This document shows, piece by piece, positions 5,001 to 20,000 of a DNA stretch of 20,000 nt. Position 1 is the stretch's first letter. Each line of letters begins with the position of its first letter. The position numbers were made by a program, and so were the translations under genes. The notes beneath the pieces are model-generated. The model had not been told where the DNA came from and made no database searches. It saw only the letters and a program-made list of their open reading frames with translations. The DNA is from Emiliania huxleyi CCMP1516 (taxonomy: Eukaryota), in assembly GCF_000372725.1 (NCBI RefSeq), contig NW_005202113.1:433125-453124 (forward strand). Reading direction: 5' to 3'.

Positions 5001-8000
5001 TCAGAGCTCCTCCTTCCCCCCGCCACCCGCGGCGCCTCCCTCTGCGCCCGCGCCGCACCCCTCCTGCTGGAACATGTCCGCGAGGGCCGAGAGCCCCTGG
5101 CCCTGGCCGCTCGCCGACGCGGCGTACCAGAGGTTGACCGCGAGGTTTCGCCTCGCGCCCCGGGAGGTCGAAATGACGGCGTGGTGCCAGCCGCGCGGCA
5201 GGAAGAGTGCGTCGCCCCTCCGCACCTCGCAGAGGGAGGGCGACGCCCTTGCGACGGCGGGGTGCGTGCTCGCCACGTCGTCCGCAAAGACGTTGAGCTT
5301 GGCGACGTTGTGCCGCACCTGAATGAATGAGGGACTCCATTTACACAGTCATGCATTCGTCCATAGCTTGGCGACGTTGTGCCGCACCTTGTCGAAAGTG
5401 GTCTCGTTGGTCACGCCGCCGGCCTACGCGCTGTGAGCACACCAACCTCGGGGCGGGAAGAGCGGCCTCGTGCGGCGTATTCAGAGCACCGCGTGAGCAC
5501 GAGGGTACGAATACAGCGAATACAGCGGAAGACGTGTCCTCACGAGCGCTAGTTGGAGTACAAGAATACGTGTCCTTCCGCGTCTAGTGCCGCCGGCCGC
5601 GAGGTCGAAGCCGTGCCTATACCCGTTGTTTAATTAGTGAGTCACGCAGTTCGATTAGTTCGACCTCGCCGCGAGGTCGAAGCCGTGCCTCCGGATGGTG
5701 GCGGCGCCGTAGTAGAGGTGCTTCGCGTCGGCGGGCGGGAAGAGCAGCGCGCGCTTCGTGCCGCGGAGCTGGTAGAGTAGGATATCGTACAGGTCAGAGT
5801 ATTATTAGTACTATTATCATCATTACTATCTCCACCTGGTAGAGCAGGTTGTCGTACAGGTCAAAGTGGAGCCCGTTCTTCATGAGCGCGCCGCCCACCC
5901 ACAAGTTGGCGATGGAGAGCGACGAGGGCGGCAGCGCGGTAGAGAGGCAGACCCCGCGCAGCAGCGGCGGGAGGCGGAGCAGGTTGAGCTGCGCGAGGTA
6001 CGCCTCGAATGGGACCGCCTCCGCCGCCTACAGACACCAGGGCGGGCTCCAAACGGGCCCCGCAAGGGCGCGATCGAGGCAAACCCGCCTCCGCCGCCTC
6101 GCCAGTCAGCTTGAGGAAGTCGGCCACGTACACGGAGCAGCGCGCCGGCTCCACGAGCGCGTCGGCGGCGGCGTCGAGGGTGGGGTGGGTGGTGGTGGGC
6201 ATCGCCTAGAAGGCTCCTAGAAGGCTCCTAGAAAGGCTCCTAGAAGGCTCCTAGAGGGGGGGGGGGTTGGGCATCGCCATCATCTCGACGAGCGTCTCGC
6301 CCACCGCGGCTGCGATGGCGGCGTCGTCCCACGCGTTCGCCGCCCAGCCGGCGGTCGCGTTCCGCAGCAGCAGAGGCCCGCCGGTGAGCAGCGCCTGAGG
6401 AAGGTTCCGGGGAAGCTCGGGGAAGGGTCCGAGCAGGTGCCAACGCCCCGAACACGAGCACGGCGCCTCTGGCCCCGCCGCCAGCACAGCCTCGAGCGTC
6501 GACTCGGAGCAGCGCGGCGCCTCCTCGAAGATGGGCGGGTACCTCGCCTCCGCACCCACCTCCACACCCACCTCCGCACCCGCCCCCGCCAGCCTCGACT
6601 CGCCGAGCCTTGCGGAGTCTCCTCCGCCGCCGCCTCCGCCGCCGCCGCCGCCTCCGCCTCCGCCGCCGCCGCCTCCGCCTCCGCCGCCGCCGCCGCCGCC
6701 GCCTCCTCCGCCGCCCACCTCGGCCGCCCTGCCCGCCGACTTGCGCTGCGCTAGCCAGTCGCGCAGCGCAGTCGCGGAGCTGACCGCCGCCTAGAAGGTT
6801 CCTAGACGGCTCCTGGAAGGTCCTGGAAGGCTCCTAGAGGGCGGAGCTGACCGCCGCCTCGTCCGCCGTGGAGGCGGCGGCGAAGGCCTCCGCGGCGGCG
6901 GCGGGGTCGGAGGCCTTGAGCGCCGAGGCGAGGCCCGCCAGCGCGTTCGCTTGCTTCGGGTTGTGCTGCAGCGCCTCGCGAAAGGCGGCGGCGGCGGCGG
7001 CGGTGTCGCCGGCAGAGCGCAGGGAGAAGCCGAGGGCGGCGTGCGTGGCCTGCAGGGAGACGCCCATGACATGTCCGGGACATGTCCGCACCTCAGCCAT
7101 GTCTCTGCGCACGTCGCCCGCCGCGTCGGTCGGGTCGAGGGCGAGGGCCGCTCGCAGGGCCGCCGCCGCCTCGCCGTGCCTGCCGGACACGCCAAAGACA
7201 CGTCACGTCTTCGAGCTCCGCCGCCGCCACCGCCGCGTCGGTCGGTTTTTGGTCTGTCGTCTGTCGGTGTCTGTCGGTGTGTCTGTCGGTGTGGCGGTCT
7301 GTCGGTCTCTAAGAGACCCAAGGAGCAAGAGACGCTGGCCCGGCGCCTGCTCGCCGCATCGAGCGCGAGGCCGAGGTTGGAGTGGGCCGCCGCCCGCCGC
7401 GGCGAGAGCGCGATGGTCGCCTGGTAGGCCGCAACCGCCTCCTCGCTCCTCCCGAGGGAGGCGAGCGCGTTGGCGCGGTTGTACGTCGCGTCCGCGTCCG
7501 CCTAGTACCATGCCTCCAGAGTATCGAATCCAGTGTGGGTTCAGGTCTTCCGGTGGTGGTGTCCGCGTCGGCCGGGTTGAGCTCGAGCGCCGCGGCAAAG
7601 GCGTCGGCGGCGCCGGCGTGGTCGCCGCCCATCGCGAGCGCGTTGCCTCGCCCAAAGTGCGACTCGAAGTCGCGCGGGTTTAGCCTGACGGCGGCGGCAA
7701 ACGCGTCCGCCGCCTCGGCGTGCCTCGCGGCCTTGTGCAGAGCAACGCCGCGGTTGTGGTGCGCGTCGGCGTTGGCCGGGTAAGCCTTCAGCACGCGGTC
7801 AAACATGCCGAGCGCCTCGTCGAGCCGCCCGAGGCCCTGCAGCGAGAGGCCGAGGTTGGTCGCCACCGCGAGCTGCTGCGCAGCGGGCACGGCGCCGGTG
7901 GCAATCGCAGCCTCGTAGGACTCGATCGCCTCGCTCCATTTTCCAGCCGCCTGGAAGCTCGAGCCGCGCTGCGCGAGAGAGACCCACTCGGGCGCAGTCT

Positions 8001-8076
8001 GCTGCGCAGCGGCGGAAGCGAGAATCGAAAACAGGAGGGCGCCGGAGCAGCCCGCGGGCCACATGTCGACTCTCAT
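5001..8076 (-). CDS. Signal peptide + TPR repeats + JmjC (cupin_8/FIH-like) 2-oxoglutarate/Fe(II) hydroxylase with C-terminal KEEL; multi-exon (about 12)
   Basis: N-terminus MRVDMWPAGCSGALLFSILASAAAQ (start 8076 or 8064). Many TPR motifs (e.g. NADAHHNRGVALHKAARHAEAADAFAAAVRLNP). JmjC core NLWVGGALMKNGLHFDLYDNLLYQ|LRGTKRALLFPP ... GDALFLPRGWHHAV...NLAVNLWY with the HxD...H triad intact. Ends GGKEEL* (TGA 5001-5003). Structure around the poly-Gly tract (6600-6718) is uncertain. Confidence 0.82.
6619..6716. repeat. (CCG/CCT)n trinucleotide tract; poly-Gly in frame on the - strand, or intronic
   Basis: About 33 consecutive CCN triplets. Confidence 0.9.
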
Positions 8077-8261
8077 CGAAGCTGGTCGCGAGAGGTGGGA
8101 TGAGAGACGCGAAAAAAAGACGGCTTGATGAATAAAGAAGAAAAAGAAACAAGAAAAAGAAACAGTACTGGAGCTTGCCGCGACCATTCTGGTCGCCGCG
8201 TGCTGCCCGTCTGTCTCGCCGCACGGCTCTTCCTATTCGCCGGCACAGAGCGCGGAATTGG
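8077..8261. promoter_or_regulatory. Putative bidirectional promoter between the divergent TPR-JmjC and SHMT genes
   Basis: 185-bp head-to-head spacer with an A-rich tract (about 8111-8163) in otherwise very GC-rich DNA. Inferred from gene geometry only. Confidence 0.5.
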
Positions 8262-10646
8262 ATGCTCTTCGGCCTGCTCGCCTTGACGCCGGCACCGACC
8301 GGCGGGCGAGCACCCGCCGCCCGCGCCTCGGCGTCGGCCGCATCGCCCGGCGCGGCGACGGCGTCGGCGGAGCCGCACGCGGCGGCGGGCGGCAGCGCCC
8401 TCGAGCGCGAGGACGGCACGGTGTGGGAGCTGATCGAGGCGGAGGGCCGCCGGCAGCGCGATGGCCTCGAGCTCATCGCGAGCGAGAACTTTGCGTCTGC
8501 CGCCGTCCGCGAGGCGCTCGGGTCTGTGATGACGAACAAGTACTCCGAGGGGCTGCCGGGCGCGCGGTACTATGGCGGCAACGAGCACGTGGACGCGCTC
8601 GAGCGGCTCTGCCAGGCGCGCGCGCTCGAGCTCTTCGGGCTCGACCCCGACGAGTGGGGCGTCAACGTGCAGCCCTACTCCGGCTCGCCCGCAAACTTTG
8701 CCGCCTTCACGGCGCTGCTCGAGCCGCACGACCGAATCATGGGGCTTGACCTGCCGTCGGGGGGGCACTTGACGCACGGGTACTACAACGAGCGCCGGCG
8801 CGTCTCGGCAACCTCCATCTACTTCGAGTCGCTCCCGTACGAGGCGAGAGCGCGCGCACCCGCCACCCTGCACCGCCCCGCCCGGAATCTGTCCCACATC
8901 TGCCCCTATCTGCCCCTACCTGCCCCCAGGTGTCGGCCGAGACTGGCCTGATCGACTACGACGGCCTCGAAGAGCGCGCTCGGCTCTTCCGCCCAAAGCT
9001 GCTCATCGCAGGCGAGGGAGGGAGAGGGAGGGATAAGGGAGAGGGAGAGGGAGAGGGAGAGGGAGAGGGAGAGGGAGAGGGAGAGGGAGAGGGAGGGAGG
9101 GGGAGGGAGAGGGAGGGAGAGGGAGGGAGGGAGAGGGAGGGAGGCCGATCTGCCGCCGCGCCCGCGCGCAGGGGCGTCGGCCTACCCTCGGGACTGGGAC
9201 TACGCGCGGATGAGGCGGATCGCCGACTCGGTCGGCGCGCTGCTGATGAACGACATGGCGCACGTCTCGGGCGGAGAGGCACGTCCACGACACGTCCGCG
9301 ACACGTCCGCGACACGTCCACGACATGTCCACAGGCGCACATCTCGGGCCTCGTCGCGGCGGAGCAAGCCGCCGACCCGTTCGAGCACTGCGACGTGGTC
9401 ACGTCGACCACGCACAAGTCGCTACGCGGGCCGCGCGCCGGCGTCATCTTTTACCGCAAGCGGTTCGAGAGCGCGGTCAACTTCGCCGTCTTCCCGTGCC
9501 TGCAGGCCCCTCCCCCTCCCTCCCTCCCTCCCTCCCTCCCTCCCTCCCTCCCTCCCTCTCAACGTCGCCGTCTCCGCGTGCCTGCAGGGAGGGCCGCACA
9601 ACCACCAGATCGCGGCGCTGGCCGTCGCGTTGCGAGAGGCTCGCCCATCTCTCCCCCATCTCTCCCCATCTCACACACCACTGTCTTGAATCGGGAGGCG
9701 TCTTCTTCTCTCCCAACCAGCGCTCGAGAGGACACGCACTCAAACTTCTTCCCGCCGTAAACCGCGGTCTAACTACTCATGAGTAGGCGGGGCAGCCAGC
9801 TTTTCCGAGATCACCCGAGATCACCCGACATCACCCGACATCACCCGACATCACCCGACGTTGTAGGCGCAGCAGCCAGCCTTCCGCGAGTACATCCGGC
9901 GTGTCAAGGCGAACGCGAAGGCGCTCGCCGCCGCGCTCGTGGCGAGAGGCTACACCATCGTCACGGGCGGTACCGACAACCACCTCGTGCTCTGGGACTT
10001 GCGGCCGCAGCGCCTGACCGGCTCGAAGCTCGAGAAGCTCGCCGAGGCCTTCCGCCCTCCTCCCTCCGCCCTCCTCCCTCGCCTTCCGCCCTCCACCCAC
10101 TCCTTCCGCCCTCCGCCCTCTTCCTCCTCCTCCTCCCTCTTCCCTCCTCCCTCTTCCCTTCTCCCTCCGCCCTCCACCCTCCTCCCTCCTCCTCCCTCCG
10201 CCCTCTTTTCTCCGCCCTCTGCCCTCCGCCCTCCGCCCTCCTCCCTCTGCCCTCTGCGAGAAGGTTCCGAGAAGGGTCCGAGGCGGGCGCTACCACGCCC
10301 CGCCCGAGAGAGAACCTTCTCGGAACCTTCTCGGAACCTGCTCGGAGCCTTCCTGCAGGCGGTCGGCATCACGCTCAACAAGAACGCGGTGCGCGGCGAC
10401 GTCTCCGCCGCCACGCCCGGCGGGGTTCGCATCGGCACGCCGGCGCTGACAACGCGCGGTTTCGGCGAGGCCGATTTCGTGAGGGTGGCGGAGTACTTGC
10501 ACGAGGCCGTCGAGCTGGCGCTTGCGCTGCAGCAGCGCTCCGGAACAAAGCTCAAGGACTTCGTCGCGGAGATGGAGGCGGAGCCCGCCGTCGCCGACTT
10601 GCGAGAGCGGGTGCGCGCGTTCGCGACCGAGTTCCCGATGCCCTGA
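8262..10646 (+). CDS. SHMT: Serine hydroxymethyltransferase, 7 exons, with an N-terminal targeting extension
   Basis: Motifs [58 protein letters not shown]-lysine motif [41 protein letters not shown]. Exons about 8262-8843, 8930-9011, 9172-9257, 9335-9505, 9588-9638, 9867-10046, 10359-10646. All six introns are GC-AG. Confidence 0.97.
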
Positions 10647-12189: not shown

Positions 12190-12936
12190 CTAGAGGGTTG
12201 GCGCGGCAGTGTCGAGGGCGCGCGCCTCCGCTGCGAGACTGCGCGCGGCGGCGGCGGCCTCCTCTGGCGAGCGGCACACCACCACCCTGTCGAAGCCCTC
12301 CGAGGTGCGCGGAGCCACTATCCACGACGAGATGCGCCGCACTATCTGCTGCAGCTCTCGCGCCGACTTTGAGCCTGAGTCGACGTGCCCCTCGTGCGTG
12401 GCGCGGCGGAGCACGCGCCGCCGCGCCACGTGCTCCGGCACGTCGAGAAAGACGGCGACGCGCGAGGCGGGCCTCGCCCCACCCAAGTTGAGCCAGTGCG
12501 CACGCTGGTCGGGGTCAAAGTTGCAGCGGTCGATCAGGACGTGGCGCCGCTGCCTCAGCGCCTCGCGCGCGGCACGGATGCACTGCTTGCGCGAGCCAAG
12601 GACGTCCTGGGAGATGCGGGACCAGCGCTCCCTGCTGCTGCCGCCGCCGTCAGCGCTGCAGCTGTGTGCGAGGAGCAGCTCCGCAAAGGTGCTCTTACCC
12701 GCGCCGGGCATACCAACCATGACCACGAGCAAGCCTGGCACAGCCGTTGATTCGGTCGGCAAAGCTGCAGATGTCCCGGCTGGTTGTCCGCTCTCTCCCT
12801 CCACACACGCACACGCGAGGGAGTGTGGAGGTCGCTGCGTGCGCGGTGCCAGGTGTACCCAGTGTGCCGGAGCGCGCTCCGATCGGTGATGCGCCGTTGG
12901 AAGCATGCTAGCGTAGAGCTGGACGAGTGGGAGCAT
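12190..12936 (-). CDS. P-loop kinase of AAA_33 / polynucleotide-kinase-like type, single exon, 248 aa
   Basis: Walker A LVVMVGMPGAGKST, then RISQDVLGSRKQC, HVLIDRCNFDPDQRAHW, VFLDVP..VARRRVLRRATHEG, P..SEGFDRV. This is the typical motif order of AAA_33/PNK-like kinases. Confidence 0.85.
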   Translation of the reverse strand: MLPLVQLYASMLPTAHHRSERAPAHWVHLAPRTQRPPHSLACACVEGESGQPAGTSAALPTESTAVPGLLVVMVGMPGAGKSTFAELLLAHSCSADGGGSSRERWSRISQDVLGSRKQCIRAAREALRQRRHVLIDRCNFDPDQRAHWLNLGGARPASRVAVFLDVPEHVARRRVLRRATHEGHVDSGSKSARELQQIVRRISSWIVAPRTSEGFDRVVVCRSPEEAAAAARSLAAEARALDTAAPTL

Positions 12937-13888
12937 GATCGCTGGGAAACCTTGGGTTCGGGCTCCTTGCCGCTGGGGGGCTGCGTACGTTGTATTGTCG
13001 AGTATTGTAACTTGTACGTACTTTTAGCTTACTGGGAGAGAAGGGAGAGGGGGTTGTACGCGCGGCGTGAGAGCTTGGAAGCGAGCTTTGAACGGCGATC
13101 GAGGATGGCGCGGTTCTCTCATATATAACACTCTCTCTCTCTCATATATAGGGTGCCCACAGGGCCCAAAAAAGAAAGGAAAAAAGAAATGGGGCAAGCC
13201 CGATCGCAGCACTTCGTGTTGTACAGTCGAAATATTGAGATTGTGACCAGGAGGGAGGGACGCAGGGGATCTCAAAGGTATACCCTTGGAATGGCCGGAT
13301 GCAGCCTTGAAAGTACGAGATCGCGCGCGCTTCGCGCGCTGCACCGCCTGTTCTCCGCGGCTGTGTGACGACGCGTGTGCCGTGTGCCAGCAGAGTTGGG
13401 CGCGCGCGGCGCGACGGCGCCCGCGAGGGAAGGCGCGGGTGCAGCGGCCGCCGGCGGTCGTACCGCTCGCCAGCCGGCGCAGCAGTGGCCAGCGCAGCGG
13501 CCGCCGGCGCAGCAGCCAGAGCAGCCGGTACGCGCCTTGCGAGGCGAGTACTCAGAGGCGGCCAGGCGGCAGTACTCGCTCGAACTTTGCGAGCTGTGCG
13601 CGCGCCGAGGCGCGCGCGGCGCGCGCCCGCCCGGCTGCCAGTAGGAGGCGGCGCAATATGGCCTATAGTACAGCCCTTGAGGAAGAGGAAGAGGCTGGCT
13701 GGCAGTGCTGTATGCCGCCGGGGGGCAGTTTTGGGGTGCTGACCCACGCCCAGGGGGCTGCAGAAGGCGTCCGCAACCGTGACAACCCGCCCCCCCAGCC
13801 GAGGCCGGTCGAAGCCCACTTGAGCACAGGCAGCCATGAGGAGTCCTCTTGGTGCTCCTGGCGGCCGTTCAAAGCTCGGGCGCACGCC

Positions 13889-13963: not shown

Positions 13964-14074
13964 GCCTGCACAAGGATCAAGGTCTGTGCCGCGGCCGCTC
14001 GGCGCCAAGTGCAGTGTCACGCTCGCACGCGAGCGGGTCACAATGGGAAACCCCCGTTTCCTATTCACTCGCTG

Positions 14075-14226
14075 AGCCCTGGTCTCGACACCTCGACACC
14101 AAACCTCGACACCAACTCGACACCTCGTCCTCGACACCCCGTGCCAACTCGACACCCCTCGACACCCCTCGACACCCCTCGAGGTCGTAAAATACAAACA
14201 AATCAACCGAAACAAGTGCGCAAGAA
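14075..14226. repeat. CTCGACAC repeat cluster (8 copies, 14084-14175), probable transposon-end remnant
   Basis: Eight CTCGACAC copies with variable spacers. The segment is bracketed by an 8-bp direct repeat ACTCGCTG (14067-14074 and 14227-14234). No partner TIR found in the window. Confidence 0.6.
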
Positions 14227-14413
14227 ACTCGCTGTGAGCATATTGGCCGGTTCGTTCGCCCTACCCTTGGTGTGAGTGAGTGAGTGAGTATTCTTGGTAC
14301 AACGCTGGCATCTGCGCTTCTTTTACTTCTTCGCGCGGCCACCGATCGCCATATTGCACTCACGCGCGAACACGCGCACGCAAAAACGCGCGTGCACGGA
14401 ACGATCATCGAGC

Positions 14414-16775
14414 ATGCACGGGCTGATCCATGTGGTCCTGAAGGGCTTCGTGGTGGAGCGGTTCGGCGCGGAGAAGTGGTCTGACATCCTGCGAATTGCC
14501 AATGTCGAGGACGAGGCGAGCATCATACGCATGGAGCAGTACGATGACGCGCTGAGCCTGGCGGTGGTCGGGATCGCCCTGGAGGCGATAGAGGAGGTGG
14601 CATCGGTTATGGGCGTTTCTTTTTCGAAGAATCGCTTACTATTACTAGGTGCTCGACGTGACCAAGGTGGATGCGCTGGAGCTGATCGGGGGCTATTTTG
14701 TGGAATTCGTTGTCAGAGCGGGGTACAGCAAGATGCTCCGCTCCCTCGGAACGACGCTGGACGAGTTTCTGCTGAACCTGAACCAGCTCCACCACAACCT
14801 CGAGCGGGAGTTCCGGACGGCAGTGTTCCCGAGTTTCGAGATTTCCCGGGTCAAGACCAACCATGACCACGATCAGGAGGAGGAGGAGGAGTTCCTCCTG
14901 CGCTACTCCTCCATGCGCGCGGGGCTGGGGCTGGCCCCGCTGGCAAAGGGCGTGGTGCAAAAGGTGGCGTCGGTACTCTTCGACATGCAGATCGAGATCG
15001 AGGAGCTCAGCCGCGTGGAGTCGGAGCAGGTGGAGAGGAGGCTCGAGCAGCCGCTCGAGAGCTCCCTGGCGACACAGCGGGCGCCGGCGGAGGACGAGGA
15101 TGCGGACGGCGGCGACGATGATGACGCCGCCGCCATCTCTCAGGGCGTGAGCTGGCTCATCAGGATCCCGCGGCCGCCTTCGCCCATAACGCCGCACTCG
15201 CCACCGCCAGTCGGGAATGCCCCCCAGCAAGCCGGCGCGGCGACGGGTCGTGCCGCCGAAGCATCATCATCGTCACCGTCCCTGTTCTCGTCCTTCGACC
15301 TGCACCAGGCGCTCTGCTCCGTGGGCAGGTGCTGCACTTCGGCTGCCTCCGCGGTGTGCTGCACTGTGGACTGTTCCGCCGAGTGTGCTGCGCCGCCGAG
15401 TGCGCAGGCCGCTCTCGACGACGTCGACGCCGCCATCTTCACCGCCCGCGGGGTGGAGATCGCGGCAGGGGAGCGGCTGTTTGTCGCCGCGGAGCTTTTC
15501 CGGGGCGTCCTCGCCTCCCAGGTGGCCGGTGCGTGGAGCGAGCCGGAGGCGCTCGAGCGGGCGGGCGACTTCTGGTCGAAGGACTTGCTGGCAAGTGCGG
15601 CGGCGGCGAGCAGGCGGCAGCGGGTGCTCGAGCGGGCAGGGGAGCAGCCGCCGCAGCCAACGGAGGACGAGGGGGGCGGCGGGTGCTACTACGCGTGGTC
15701 GAGAGAGGTCCTACTGCCACGCTGCGGCGGGCGCTACTACCACGCTGCGGCGGCGGAGGAGTGGATCCCGGGGTGGCAGCGAGTGCTCTTCGTCTCTCAC
15801 GCCTGGTCGCCCCCGCCTGGCTGGGCGGAGCTGATGGGGGCCCAGTGCCGGTACGGCGACGTGAAGGCGGCAGAGGTGTGCATCGCCGCGAAGGATCTGG
15901 CCGGCCAGGCGAGCGGTAGGGGGGCGGCCGCTCGGGCGGACGCCGTGGCCGCTGGCGACGCCGTGCGTTGGGGGGAGGTGCGGCTCTGGATCGACAAGTG
16001 CTGCGTGCAGCAGGGTGACGCGGTGCAGGTCGCCACCTGCGTGGAGCTCTTCGAGGAGTTCATCCAACTCAGCGACGGCGTGCTGGTCTTGCCCGCCTGG
16101 AACTACTTCGAGCGGCTCTGGTGCGTCTACGAGTGGGCATGCTTCACCATGTTCCACGAGCCCGAGGATGTGGTGCTGTGCGCCGACGCTTTCTTGCGGC
16201 CGAAGTCCCTGCCGCTGTTCCTCAAGTCCATCAGGAACTTCTCGCTGGATCGCTGCCAGTGCTTCCATGCCCCAGACCGGGAGATCCTCCGCCGGAAGGT
16301 GGACCAGTACTACACCTCTGTCCGGGCGTTCGAGACCTTCGTGCGCTTCACCGCCGTTGCGTTCTTCGGCCGGTGCATGACCCACCGGGCCGGCCGCGCC
16401 TCCGCGCAGCTGGCGCCGTGGGCCGACCTCGCAGAGGAGTTCGGCTTCGCCGCTCTGGCGAGGGAGCTCCGCACAGCCGACCAGAGCTCCAAGCGGTGGC
16501 GCCGGGAGGCCTACCGAAGCGCCAGCGGGAGCCATTGGGAGGAGGCGGCGGGGGGCAAGAAGCTTCCGAACAGGGAGCCAGATCAGCCAACGGCAGCGCG
16601 GGCCTCCTCCTCGGGCGTGCAGGCGCTGATCTGCGAGAAATCGGACGCTTGGTTTTCGCGGCACATCGCGCCGCTGGTGGAGGTGGCCCGCAACGAAGCG
16701 GCGAATCCGGACGCGCTGCGGCTTGTGGCCCGGGGCCGATGCCAGGGCCGGCGTCGTCTCTTTTGTTACGCGTGA
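14414..16775 (+). CDS. H-NOX (HNOB haem NO-binding) domain fused to a TIR/HET-like domain, about 765 aa, 2 exons
   Basis: Exon 1 14414-14584, GC-AG intron 14585-14648, exon 2 14649-16775. H-NOX: MHGLIHVVLKGFVVERFGAEKW...YDD...G..FVEF...GYSKMLRSLG..L.EFLLNLNQLHHNL...FPSF...YSSMR..LAPLAKGVV. C-terminal part: LFVSHAW...LWIDKCCVQQ...FIQLSDGVLVL...YFERLWCVYEW...FSLDRCQCF..PDREIL. Confidence 0.88.
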
Positions 16776-17285
16776 CGTCTCCAAAAGTGCGTGTGTCTTT
16801 TTATGATAATACTTAAGGCCGCGACGCGTCTCATCATGCGTGCGTAATAGGCCGTGAAGACTGAGAGAGTGTTTTGCCTGCGCGCACTTACCCGGGGAGC
16901 ACCCAACAAACTGGTAATGCTCAAAATCCCGGGGCGAGTCTTGCTGAGGGCGGGGCGCGGGGAGGTCTCCGGTAGTATGTGCTATGTCCGCTCGACTGCT
17001 GGACTGCGGCTACTCCCGGTGGGGTAGAGTTGCTGATCGGATGGCCCATAGTGCGGACCTCGTTAAAAGAAAGATAAAACAGACAACCCAAGGGAGGGAG
17101 ACAGGCGTTCAATTCTGTGAGGTGCAAAATTCTATTAGAAGCCGTCGTCCTCGCTTTGCCTGTTGTGTGAATCGTGCCCTGTGCGAGAGAGGTTTTGGAA
17201 AAATTCTTTTTGGCGAGGTCGGCTCCAGAGCCTGAGGCCGCGGCGACTTGCCTGTAGCACACGTGCTGGTGCTCTCAAGGGGGCG

Positions 17286-20000
17286 ATGCTCACACGTCGG
17301 GCCCTGCTGCGGCGCTCCTTACAAGTACAGCGCGCACTGCTTCGGTCGGCGCGGATTCCTCCTGCCAGCCTGAGGCGCGGCGTCGTCCTGCTACCGCGCC
17401 GGCCGCCGCTGCTGCTTCACTCGCGTGCGCTCGCTTCCAAGTCGAAGTCTGAGAAGGCACCTCCACCGGCGCGGTGGTCGCCGCAGTGGGTGTGGGACCA
17501 CGCAAAGGAGATGGCGTCGCACTACTGGCACGGGAGCAAGCTGCTCGCCGCCGACACGCGGATCGCCTCGCAGCTGCTGGTGAAGATGATGCGCGGTCGC
17601 GTCCTCTCGCGGCGCGAGCACAGCCTGCTGGTGCGGGTGCTGGGCGATCTGCTGCGCGTCATCCCGCTCGCCTTCTTCCTCCTCGTGCCGATGATGGAGT
17701 TTGCGCTGCCGTTTGCGATCCGGCTCTTCCCAAACCTGCTGCCGTCCACGTTCGAGGAGAAGCACCAGATCGAAGAGAAGCGGATCAAGCTCCTCAAGGT
17801 GCGCGCGAGGGCGGCGCCGGCGGCACCTTGAGGGCGGCGGGGCGGCCGGCGGTGGCAGCTCCCACGGCGTCCCGATCCACCGACGTCCTCGGCTCACGGC
17901 GCCGGCGCTCGCCTCTGCGCAGGTGCGTCTTGAGGTGGCCAAGGTGCTGGAGCACACTCTGGAGGAGCGTGCGAAGGAGCTGAACAGGGCGACCAAGGCG
18001 AAGGCGGAGGCGGGCGGCGGCGACGCGGAGGAGCCGTACCCGCGCGACCTGTTTAGCAAGTTCATGCGACGGATGAGGGAGGGTGCGCGCAGCCGAGAGA
18101 CAGCCGGGATGTGCGCGAGGTACGGCGAGAGATAGGGAGAGGAGAGGAGGGCAGGGGGCGCGTCAGGCCGGCAGTGCTGGCGCAGGCCATCGCCGTGGGG
18201 AGGCGGGGGTCCTAGGCAGGCTCCTCGAGACTTCACGCGGGGTCTGGGGGGAGTGCAGTCCAGAGCAGCGGGAGATGTGGGGAGATGTGGGGAGATGTGG
18301 GGAGATGTGGGGAGTGCAGTCCAGAGCAGCGGCGATGCGAGTGGCCCTTGTGGTTGCGACTCGCAGACTCTCGTCACCTGCTGGGGAGATCTGCGGAGAT
18401 AGCGGAGATCTGGGAAGATCTGGGGAGAGATGCTTTTCTCTTCTCGCACCTGCTGCTGGCGCAGGCGAGCGTCTGTCGCGGGAGGAGACGCTGCAGGTCA
18501 TGTCGCACTTCAAGCATGTCGACTCACCAGACGCGCTCAACAGGCGAGACACGCCGCCCCGCCCCATCTCTCCCCACATCTCCCCGCATCTCCCCGCATC
18601 TCCCCCAATCTCCCCGACAGGCAGCAGCTCACCCTGCTCTGCAACTTCCTCGGCATGCCTTCCTTCGGCCCCGACCCGGTCCTCCGCTTCCAGCTCCGCA
18701 CCAAGCTGCGCCAGCTCCGCAACGACGACAAGGAGAGCATGTGGGAGGGCGTCGGCCACATCTTCCCACATCTCGCCACATCTCGCCACATCTCGCCACA
18801 TCTCGCCACATCTCGCCACATCTCGCCACATCTCGCCACATCTCGCCACATCTCGCCACATCTCGCCACATCTCGCCACATCTCCCTCCGCAGGAGATCA
18901 TGTGGGAGGGCGTCGGCTCGCTCACCCGAGACGAGCTCCTCGCGGCCATGCGCGCGAGAGGGCTGCCGAGCGCGGGGCTCGGCCAGGCGCAGATGGCGGC
19001 TGCGCTGCAGGAGTGGCTGCAGCTGTCGCAGAACCGCGAGATCCCGTCCGTGTTGCTGCTGCTCTCCAACGCGCTCCGCTTCGCGCGCGTGCGCGGCCGT
19101 AGAAGCGGAGCGCGTACTCTAGCGGAGTGCGTCCTCTTGCCGTCCACCCAGCGCTCGAGAGGACGCGCACACCGGCGCCGCACACGTGTGCGCCTCCCGC
19201 CTACTCGCGCGGTGCGTGAGAGAGGACACTGCACCCTCCTCCCCTGAGGCTGTTGGCGTGAGCACCACGCAGGTGCGCGACTACCAGCAAGAGGCCCAGG
19301 CGGAGAGGGAGGCGGCGGCGGCGTCGAAGGTGCTCGACGACGAGGCCGCGCAGGTCACATCTCTCCCCATCTCTCCCCATCTCTCCCCATCTCTCCCCAT
19401 CTCTCTCCCCACCTCTCCCGCCACCAGGTCGCGCTCTCGTCGATGCGCGAGGAGGTGATCGACTCGGCGGGCAGCGGTGCGGCCAAGGGGGCGGCGACCA
19501 CCACCAAGGAGGCGCTGGCGTCGCTCGAGCGCGAGGCGGAGCTGGTCGAGGAGGAGAGATGGGGAGAGATGGGGAGGGATGGGGAGGTGTGAGGAGGTCT
19601 AGGCGGAGCTGGTCGAGGAGGAGAGGCAGCTCAAGCGCGCAGGCGTCGACAAGGTCCCGTCGAGCGTGCGGCCGGCGGAGGCTGTGACGTGGAGCGGGGG
19701 CGGGAGCGGCGACAAGGCGGCGGCGGAGAAGGCGTCGCCCGCGGCTGCCGACGGCGCGGCGACGGCGGAGGAGGTGGAGGAGGAGGAGGCGACGCGGCTG
19801 TCGCGGGAGCAGGTGCGCGACATCGCGGCGGCGGTGGAGACGCTGTCCGCGACGAGCGCGCTGGAGGGCGAGACGACGGAGTGGCAGGAGCGAAGTCACA
19901 CTACTCAGCACTACTCAGCACGCCATTGCTAATCAGGCGAGAAGAAGGAGTGGCAGAAGCTCGAGGCGGAGAGGCTGGAGAGCGCGACCGAGATCGAGGA
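17286..20000 (+). CDS. LETM1: LETM1/MDM38 mitochondrial inner-membrane protein, at least 9 exons, truncated by the window end
   Basis: Arg/Leu-rich presequence MLTRRALLRRSL. Core HYWHGSKLLAADTRIAS...LSRREHSLLVRVLGDLLRVIPLAFFLLVPMMEFALPFAIRLFPNLLPSTF; LRFQLRTKLRQLRNDDK|EIMWEGVGSLTRDELLAAMRARG; LQEWLQLSQNREIPSVLLLLS. Exons about 17286-17798, 17923-18082, 18465-18543, 18621-18732, 18894-19088, 19273-19353, 19428-19535, 19603-19867, 19937->20000. Confidence 0.95.
18771..18880. repeat. Intronic 10-bp tandem repeat (TCTCGCCACA)x11
   Basis: Eleven perfect copies inside LETM1 intron 18733-18893. Confidence 0.95.

Follow-up and report, generated by a model that had tools for sequence, protein, structure and literature searches.

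We describe an algal gene that fuses a gas-sensor domain of the H-NOX type to a TIR-like effector. The gene, EMIHUDRAFT_108611, lies at positions 14414 to 16775 on the forward strand of a 20,000-nucleotide (nt) stretch of Emiliania huxleyi CCMP1516 (contig NW_005202113.1, positions 433,125 to 453,124; this whole stretch is called the window, and all coordinates are counted within it). The fusion of an H-NOX domain to a TIR/HET-like domain is real, transcribed, and conserved. On the analyses reported below, the protein likely works as a sensor-gated TIR enzyme, yet it falls outside the Pfam definitions of both TIR and HET. Our preferred reading, to which we assign a probability of roughly 45%, is that of a one-component nitric oxide (NO) receptor, in which NO would release a NADase that makes a messenger of the ADP-ribose (ADPR) or cyclic ADP-ribose (cADPR) type, serving signaling rather than killing.

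Gene structure and transcript continuity

The coding part of exon 1 (14414..14584, forward strand; 57 codons, amino acids [aa] 1 to 57) opens with the ATG at 14414 and matches positions 1 to 55 of the Pfam HNOB profile, while exon 2 (14649..16775, forward strand) consists of a single open frame of 708 codons (aa 58 to 765) plus the stop, as seen in the frame itself, in contigs from public runs, and in the environmental contig L001. Between them lies a 64-nt GC-AG intron (14585..14648, forward strand), which was skipped in contigs from five of the eight runs (X1, X2, X4, X5, and X7), representing two studies and two organism labels. Among the remaining runs, X6 had no cover at the intron, X9 gave an unspliced contig, and X3 held both forms, namely, one unspliced contig and one whose loose end fits the spliced form. 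The RNA status of these runs is a guessed label, which the splice joint itself supports. Run contigs extended the transcript upstream of the ATG to at least 14288 to 14353 and 3' to at least 16909; the longest spliced contig (14353 to 15638) crossed the H-NOX domain and the linker and reached ~50 aa into the effector module.

Because the contigs use the 64-nt intron, the product is 765 aa long, versus 769 aa in the public model. That model, to which XP_005792858.1 corresponds exactly, uses a GT donor at 14597 (a 52-nt GT-AG intron) instead of the GC donor of the contigs at 14585, and it was rejected, the 52-nt intron occurring in none of the contigs from the eight runs. Its four extra residues form a gap in the alignment with the β1 subunit of soluble guanylate cyclase (sGC), exactly at the intron; with the 64-nt intron, the proximal His and the conserved Pro take the sGC β1 numbers 105 and 118. 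A split gene or a chimeric assembly was also rejected, given that the frame is open throughout, that L001, an independent contig (14300 to 17196 at 99.4%), covers the whole gene with zero indels in the coding part, and that 22 of 26 close metagenome loci are in frame. Thus, the single frame with a 64-nt intron joining both domains, as put forward in the initial annotation of the window, was borne out by the splice joint and by the open frame at 14649 to 16775, and all of the motif coordinates given there (LNQLH, FPSF, YSSMR, FVSHAW, WIDKCCVQQ, YFERLWCVYE, and the Glu codon at 16131 to 16133) were correct.

Some contigs deviated locally from this structure. In run X2, a single contig of low depth omits 79 nt at 15324 to 15404 (GT..AG possible, out of frame), a segment left unskipped in X1 and X7. 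Single-base indels in the H-NOX part were seen in metagenome contig L002 (near 14960) and in a low-depth X9 contig (14766), and these are either errors or rare broken alleles.

H-NOX sensor domain

The N-terminal domain (aa 1 to 179, encoded across the intron at 14414..15014, forward strand) was identified by Pfam PF07700 (HNOB) and by PDB sequence matches. HNOB exceeded its gathering score in both exons (E = 2.8e-7 in exon 1 and 5.4e-17 in exon 2), and the annotated protein matched PF07700 with 100.2 bits (cutoff, 25.5; E = 1.5e-28) over profile positions 1 to 162 of 163, in line with the complete HNOB domain that had been expected at aa 1 to 200. The top PDB sequence matches were sGC β1 (E = 5e-15) and Nostoc Alr2278 (E = 1e-13), and the family profile fits the Nostoc H-NOX as well as it fits sGC (E = 6.5e-29 versus 4.7e-29).

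Residue conservation in the sensor was counted over 46 fused proteins, which had been picked for carrying H-NOX. Both the proximal heme ligand position, His105 of LNQLH (14790..14792, forward strand), and the heme-distorting proline position, Pro118 (14829..14831, forward strand, within FPSF at 14826-14837), were kept in 46/46. The YxSxR heme-propionate motif (YSSMR, 14904..14918, forward strand; Tyr143, Ser145, and Arg147) was retained with Tyr in 44, Ser in 41 and Thr in 3, and Arg in all 46, and the hinge glycines Gly71 and Gly158 were present in 43/44 and 43/46 proteins, respectively. At the distal-pocket position matching sGC Ile145, the protein has Leu155 (14940..14942, forward strand); this column holds L, F, V, I, or A and Tyr in none of the 46, although a Tyr occupies a neighboring position in 2 of the 46. 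O2 binding by H-NOX reportedly needs a distal Tyr (PMC8738867, in the part available), which defines the O2-binding subgroup. As this residue is lacking, with Leu155 in its place, the sensor is likely NO selective, judging from sequence. The domain as a whole is an intact H-NOX of the sGC type, predicted to bind heme.

Helix αA (14414..14443, forward strand) carries the family-conserved residues His2, His6, and Lys10 (33/38, 38/39, and 32/41 of the rows that are not gapped at the position), and alignment places Tyr2 and Asn6 of sGC β1 and Nostoc H-NOX where the fusion family has His2 and His6. The end of helix αF carries the family-specific pair Glu109-Arg110 (14802..14807, forward strand; 38/46 and 42/46). 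All five residues differ in sGC β1 and Nostoc H-NOX, and we take them to lie on αA and αF by homology. In bacterial H-NOX, αA-αC and αF form the surfaces that contact the partner kinase, according to the available text of PMC7108781.

TIR-like effector module

The effector module spans aa 335 to 745 (15480..16712, forward strand) and comprises an N-terminal extension, a TIR-like α/β core, and C-terminal helices in the AlphaFold2 model, which had a mean confidence (pLDDT) of 87 and a predicted template modeling score (pTM) of 0.88 for 420 aa and a pLDDT of 91.6 for the 187-aa core. The core motifs do lie at aa ~430 to 630, where the effector had originally been placed, but the conserved module is larger (~aa 335 to 745). 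In the model, the motifs are arranged as in TIR domains. FVSHAW (15789..15806, forward strand) forms the first core strand, with Phe438, Ser440 (or Thr), His441, and Trp443 conserved in 103, 106, 102, and 102 of 116 aligned relatives (10 or 11 rows gapped); WIDKCCVQQ (15987..16013, forward strand) forms the second strand and a loop, with Trp504, Asp506, Lys507, and Cys509 in 111, 113, 102, and 108 of 116; and YFERLWCVYE (16104..16133, forward strand) places WCVYE on helix αC, after strand 3. Its Glu552 (16131-16133) sits at the TIR catalytic position, aligned with WCLDE of the plant TIR 7xoz, as in the WCxxE motif of enzymatic TIRs, and is the sole invariant column in the 100- and 116-row alignments (116/116), so the intact catalytic-position Glu seen initially extends to all of these relatives. 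A CxxxxDR motif follows (16260..16280, forward strand; Cys595, Asp600, and Arg601 in 113, 115, and 101 of 116), and the 116-row alignment shows conserved basic residues at Lys463, Lys507, Arg546, and Arg601.

Structural re-alignment of the 420-aa model returned TIR chains in all of the top 19 rows (Z = 7.1 to 5.5; best, root mean square deviation of 4.7 over 144 aligned residues). Foldseek run on the core ranked the RPP1 TIR best (E = 3.5e-3, probability 0.97), with SPARTA and other TIRs also at the top, and Foldseek run on the 420-aa model gave no match at E ≤ 0.001. The core fold matches cover only ~100 to 145 residues, with 8 to 18% identity to TIRs. At the sequence level, PDB profile matches of the effector were mostly TIRs, placing WCvYE on WCLDE, while a single-sequence PDB search with the effector had zero matches; weak Pfam matches to TIR, TIR_2, or HET (E ≤ 0.01) occurred in 27 of 79 relatives, NCBIfam gave only weak matches to the TIR-like FxsC (4/11), and PADLOC left this protein unmatched, with PDC-S66 matching weakly in 6/73 relatives. 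No search of the effector or its relatives produced a Pfam or PDB sequence match to a nucleoside deoxyribosyltransferase. Neighbors in the Atlas include HET clusters (template modeling score [TM] of predicted models, 0.59 to 0.64, under the Atlas bar for family naming; feature score, 0.93), and a feature search of named Atlas clusters found nothing above 0.8. The sequence evidence for TIR/HET is thus weak but one-sided, and the core is predicted from modeling to adopt a TIR-like fold.

Linker between sensor and effector

The two domains are connected by a low-complexity linker (15030..15479, forward strand), which ranges from ~80 to 200 aa within the family. At 15294..15383 (forward strand) it has a conserved helix motif that includes His276 (15303-15305) and, after it, a Cys cluster. 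Of the 46 linkers, 42 have the motif [WFLYM]Hxx[LIVMF], whereas shuffled sequences predict 5.6, and at least one Cys lies within 15 aa of it in 33 of those 42; the number and spacing of the Cys residues vary, and 9/42 have none near the motif. Candidate roles for the His276 motif are a docking helix, a zinc/redox site, and a heme ligand.

Family distribution and domain partners

With the C-terminal 420 aa as the query, phmmer recovered 510 representatives (50%-identity clusters) at E ≤ 0.001, of which the best 150 were examined. H-NOX was found in 45 of these best 150 of 510 (own cluster included; custom hidden Markov model built from four sequences) and in 43 of the best 75, or 39 of the 40 among the best 75 that have room for a sensor, and Pfam HNOB was confirmed in 43 of the 79 longer relatives scanned. 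In a second search, PF07700 was present in 32/41 matches, nine of them labeled complete transcript open reading frames, while a profile word-search from four sequences found only two proteins. Of 80 metagenome loci, the best 26 include 24 with H-NOX on the contig, and in 22 of them both parts share one open frame; H-NOX occurred in 0/54 weaker loci. These more distant relatives (L027 to L080) form a much larger set that keeps the RLWCxYE motif and has no H-NOX. The Atlas holds an 89-member cluster with this architecture.

The survey called for at the outset therefore revealed a family wider than one alga, with fusions in haptophytes, dinoflagellates (coral symbionts included), and a pelagophyte; named members come from Diacronema lutheri (three genes), Prorocentrum cordatum, Symbiodinium spp., Durusdinium trenchii, Apocalathium hangoei, and Chrysophaeum taylorii. 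Pfam matched neither HNOBA nor guanylate cyclase in this protein or in the 79 + 22 relatives scanned, in keeping with the absence of both noted from the sequence at first, and the protein belongs to the H-NOX class, not to sGC. Database labels of family members read either heme-NO-binding only or, wrongly, guanylate cyclase: P0189, P0193, and P0194 from Durusdinium/Symbiodinium are named "Guanylate cyclase soluble subunit beta-1" or gcy-34, and they carry no cyclase domain.

In a quick tree of the effector, built from 113 rows after three short ones of the 116 had been left out, most H-NOX rows gathered in one 76-row group (Shimodaira-Hasegawa-like approximate likelihood ratio support of 86, not starred), with the EF-hand/ion-channel and the FIST-like fusions on branches apart from it. 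Five of these relatives (P0078, P0084, P0089, P0100, and P0190) carry the effector module with EF-hands or behind an ion-transport domain plus EF-hands, a hint of a Ca2+ link. Four others (P0112, P0128, P0141, and P0162) carry it behind a ~330-aa FIST-like (NosP-like) N terminus with a conserved His-Ser motif; FIST_C matched three of the four (E = 3e-4 to 1e-2), beside a weak FBXO22 match. The whole module, beyond the core, is common to the H-NOX and FIST-like fusions (hhalign, 99.95%). FIST-FIST_C constitutes the NosP sensor of NO or heme (PMC8846402, in the part available). The FIST-like fusion is possibly a second, independent coupling to an NO/heme sensor.

A correlation of 0.61 between H-NOX and effector identities was set aside, because it is explained by shared ancestry. 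P0207 is joined to a short-chain dehydrogenase and P0175 to RSN1_TM/PHM7_cyt, both likely merged gene models. A narrow test with one exact peptide pattern returned no viral or prokaryotic relatives of the effector.

Comparison with known systems

The closest relative of the sensor by PDB sequence match, sGC β1 (PDB 6jt0 and 6pas; H-NOX, HNOBA/PAS, coiled coil, and cyclase), shares with the fusion the N-terminal H-NOX, His105, Pro118, YxSxR, and the lack of a distal Tyr, and the fusion, too, is likely a one-chain NO receptor with an enzyme output. In contrast to sGC β1, the fusion has no HNOBA or cyclase and its output domain is TIR-like; moreover, sGC Asp102 is Asn in 44/46 fused proteins, and the αA and αF surface residues differ. 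The bacterial H-NOX systems (the HnoX-HnoK kinase pair, H-NOX-diguanylate cyclase, H-NOX-methyl-accepting chemotaxis protein, and Nostoc Alr2278) resemble the fusion in the sensor domain, whereas their outputs are kinases, cyclic di-GMP enzymes, and chemoreceptors, as far as the available text of the sources goes (PMC13654575, PMC8738867, PMC8846402).

On the effector side, the enzymatic TIRs (plant TNL RPP1/RUN1/RPS4, SPARTA TIR-APAZ, AbTir, ThsB, and SARM1) resemble the fusion in its predicted core fold, the WCxxE Glu, and the sensor-fused layout. They differ in that the core of the fusion, at 8 to 18% identity and Z < 8, is part of a module of ~410 aa that extends beyond it at both termini, and in that their input is a pathogen, nucleic acid, or nucleotide, whereas that of the fusion would be a heme gas sensor. 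Fungal HET (PF06985) is likewise TIR related with extensions, comes close in the Atlas (TM, 0.59 to 0.64), and gives weak Pfam matches in relatives of the fusion, but Pfam HET is unmatched in this protein, and there is no NACHT/WD40 or allorecognition context; the biochemistry of HET domains was described as not yet known in the available part of PMC10890737. The virus-resistance TIRs of G. huxleyi are from the same species and have the conserved Glu, but these are Pfam defined, 76 to 128 aa long, and receptor-like or cytoplasmic, and the text available from their report does not mention a heme domain (PMC12489294). Nucleoside 2'-deoxyribosyltransferases and DNPH1 use a Glu to cleave N-glycosidic bonds. 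Their fold score in the unbiased search is level with that of TIRs, and they have zero sequence-level matches.

Proposed function and alternatives

In the mechanism that we favor, NO binding to the heme would break the Fe-His105 bond and shift αF and the distal subdomain, following known H-NOX chemistry. This movement may be relayed to the effector through αA (His2, His6, and Lys10), αF (Glu109 and Arg110), and the linker helix with His276. The enzyme would be held off at rest and released by NO, whereupon Glu552 would attack the nicotinamide-ribose bond of NAD+, as in TIR chemistry, yielding an ADPR- or cADPR-type messenger for signaling and not for killing. In animals and plants, cADPR is a Ca2+-mobilizing messenger downstream of NO. 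The EF-hand and channel fusions fit such a cADPR/Ca2+ role, and the EF-hand, channel, and FIST-like partners are as expected of a sensor-controlled signaling enzyme. E. huxleyi produces NO (PMC6461841), and active NADases exist among some protist TIRs (bioRxiv 2026.04.20.719644), according to the parts of these sources available.

Several points weigh against this reading. Heme binding, NAD+ cleavage, the gating, and its direction are all deduced. Pfam TIR, TIR_2, and HET are unmatched in this protein, and only 2/79 relatives reach a gathering score (P0133 for TIR and P0108 for HET); all fold matches lie below Z = 8 and short of a Foldseek E of ≤0.001, and in the unbiased fold search, deoxyribosyltransferases (Z = 6.8) are level with TIRs (Z = 6.7). 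The TIR/HET-like nature of the C-terminal domain, as first proposed, is supported in that TIRs lead two of the three fold searches, and it is weakened by the missing Pfam match and by that tie. The relatives were collected with the same query, so some of the conservation of the motifs reflects how the sequences were chosen. The linker is not only long but also variable. Of the single transcript that had been anticipated, a spliced contig covers the H-NOX domain, the linker, and the start of the effector, but no E. huxleyi RNA contig in the eight runs spans from H-NOX to Glu552, the longest ending at 15638. Finally, of 29 Glu-bearing TIRs from unicellular eukaryotes, just 4 produced cADPR isomers in Escherichia coli, as stated in the part of bioRxiv 2026.04.20.719644 available.

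We weighed four alternatives. The same switch might instead deplete NAD+ in bulk and kill the cell, as a death or antiviral executioner of the HET or SARM1 kind, a possibility that the initial annotation had raised. HET clusters are indeed structural neighbors (TM, 0.59 to 0.64; feature score, 0.93), HET domains trigger death in fungi (PMC12881547, PMC10890737), NO rises early in infection by the E. huxleyi virus (EhV) (PMC6461841), and other TIR genes of G. huxleyi are tied to resistance (PMC12489294). However, the available text of PMC6461841 reports that NO protected against H2O2 and that NO scavenging cut virus yield, which is to say that NO was protective and proviral; two supplements of PMC12489294, including the 2,178-row table of differential expression in EhV infection, contain neither the name of the gene nor HNOB or PF07700, an absence that hinges on the annotation of its authors and that an enzyme switch, which need not be induced, could also show; and the architecture is stable over three algal lineages, with no nucleotide-binding leucine-rich repeat (NLR), leucine-rich repeat (LRR), or other repeat sensor. 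We therefore regard a cell-death or antiviral role as little supported and unlikely. A similarly low probability attaches to an input other than NO, such as heme occupancy, redox state, CO, or O2, with His276 and the Cys cluster forming, together with His2 and His6, a zinc/redox site or a displaceable heme ligand. The enrichment of the His motif in the linker (42/46, with 5.6 expected by chance), the Cys following it in 33/42, the conservation of His6 in 38/39, and the heme-independent detection of oxidation by the Vibrio cholerae H-NOX through a Cys/Zn site (PMC7108781, in the part available) would suit such an input; the invariant, complete heme pocket, the lacking distal Tyr, and the variable count and spacing of the Cys residues, which are missing by the motif in 9/42, argue against it.

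Alternatively, the effector could be a gas-regulated N-glycosidase or transferase acting on another nucleotide, akin to deoxyribosyltransferases or DNPH1, and not a NADase. Deoxyribosyltransferases stand at the joint top of the unbiased fold search (Z = 6.8 and 6.7) and appear in both other fold searches, and the core matches only ~100 to 145 residues while the large module extensions are unlike TIRs, but the signals at the sequence level are all for TIR/HET, with none for deoxyribosyltransferase, and TIRs come first both in the re-alignment of the 420-aa model and in Foldseek on the core, making such an enzyme improbable. Least probable, to a small degree, is a noncatalytic TIR-like scaffold or a mere tethering of the two domains with no direct gating. 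Many Glu-bearing TIRs gave no product (bioRxiv 2026.04.20.719644, in the part available), and the long, variable linker and the pTM of 0.50 of the full-protein Atlas model would agree with loose tethering, against which stand the invariance of Glu552 as the sole such column (100 + 116 rows) among several near-invariant residues, the retention of the fusion over three lineages, and the family-specific surface residues on the H-NOX signaling helices.

The NO-released NADase remains our preferred reading and would extend to the family. With odds a little short of even, the chlorophyll-c algae (haptophytes, dinoflagellates including Symbiodiniaceae, and pelagophytes) would have their own class of NO receptor, in which H-NOX is wired to a TIR/HET-type NADase and NO is converted into an ADPR- or cADPR-type messenger without cyclic GMP (cGMP), and couplings of the same module to a FIST/NosP-like sensor of NO or heme and to Ca2+ sensors would have arisen separately.

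Genomic surroundings

The neighbors of the gene in the window are a tetratricopeptide repeat (TPR) protein (6794-8232, reverse strand), a serine hydroxymethyltransferase (8136-10646, forward strand), an AAA_33 P-loop protein (12190-13023, reverse strand), and LETM1 (17139-19247, forward strand), and no NO- or NAD-related gene was recognized among them. The gene is flanked by multicopy repeats at 14000-14182 and 17100-17300 (very high contig depth), with tandem units of 10 to 14 nt at 14090-14182. Many further tandem arrays (10 to 11 nt), probably intronic, occur at 6205-6255, at 6790-6842, and from 17 kb to 20 kb; among these, one 11-mer array is present twice, ~590 nt apart. Rfam gave no match.

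Novelty and biological meaning

The fusion of H-NOX to a TIR/HET-like domain is apparently undescribed so far. In agreement with the initial view that the architecture was uncharacterized, no description of a H-NOX-TIR fusion was found in open-access full texts; subscription journals and bioRxiv supplements were outside reach, and the latter may list the architecture. The available part of PMC6461841, on NO in E. huxleyi, names no receptor, and, before choanoflagellates, chlorophytes were called the only protists with animal-like sGC (bioRxiv 2022.02.14.480389, in the part available).

The family constitutes a concrete, purifiable candidate for an NO receptor in bloom-forming algae and coral symbionts. 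NO has been implicated in coral-symbiont stress and in diatom signaling. Because some dinoflagellate members are mislabeled as guanylate cyclase, NO-cGMP inferences based on such labels in dinoflagellates need rechecking. If the proposed function is true, H-NOX sensors would gain a new class of output and TIR enzymes a new class of input; the fusion would be the first TIR enzyme gated by a gas and would give access to the biochemistry of HET-like domains.

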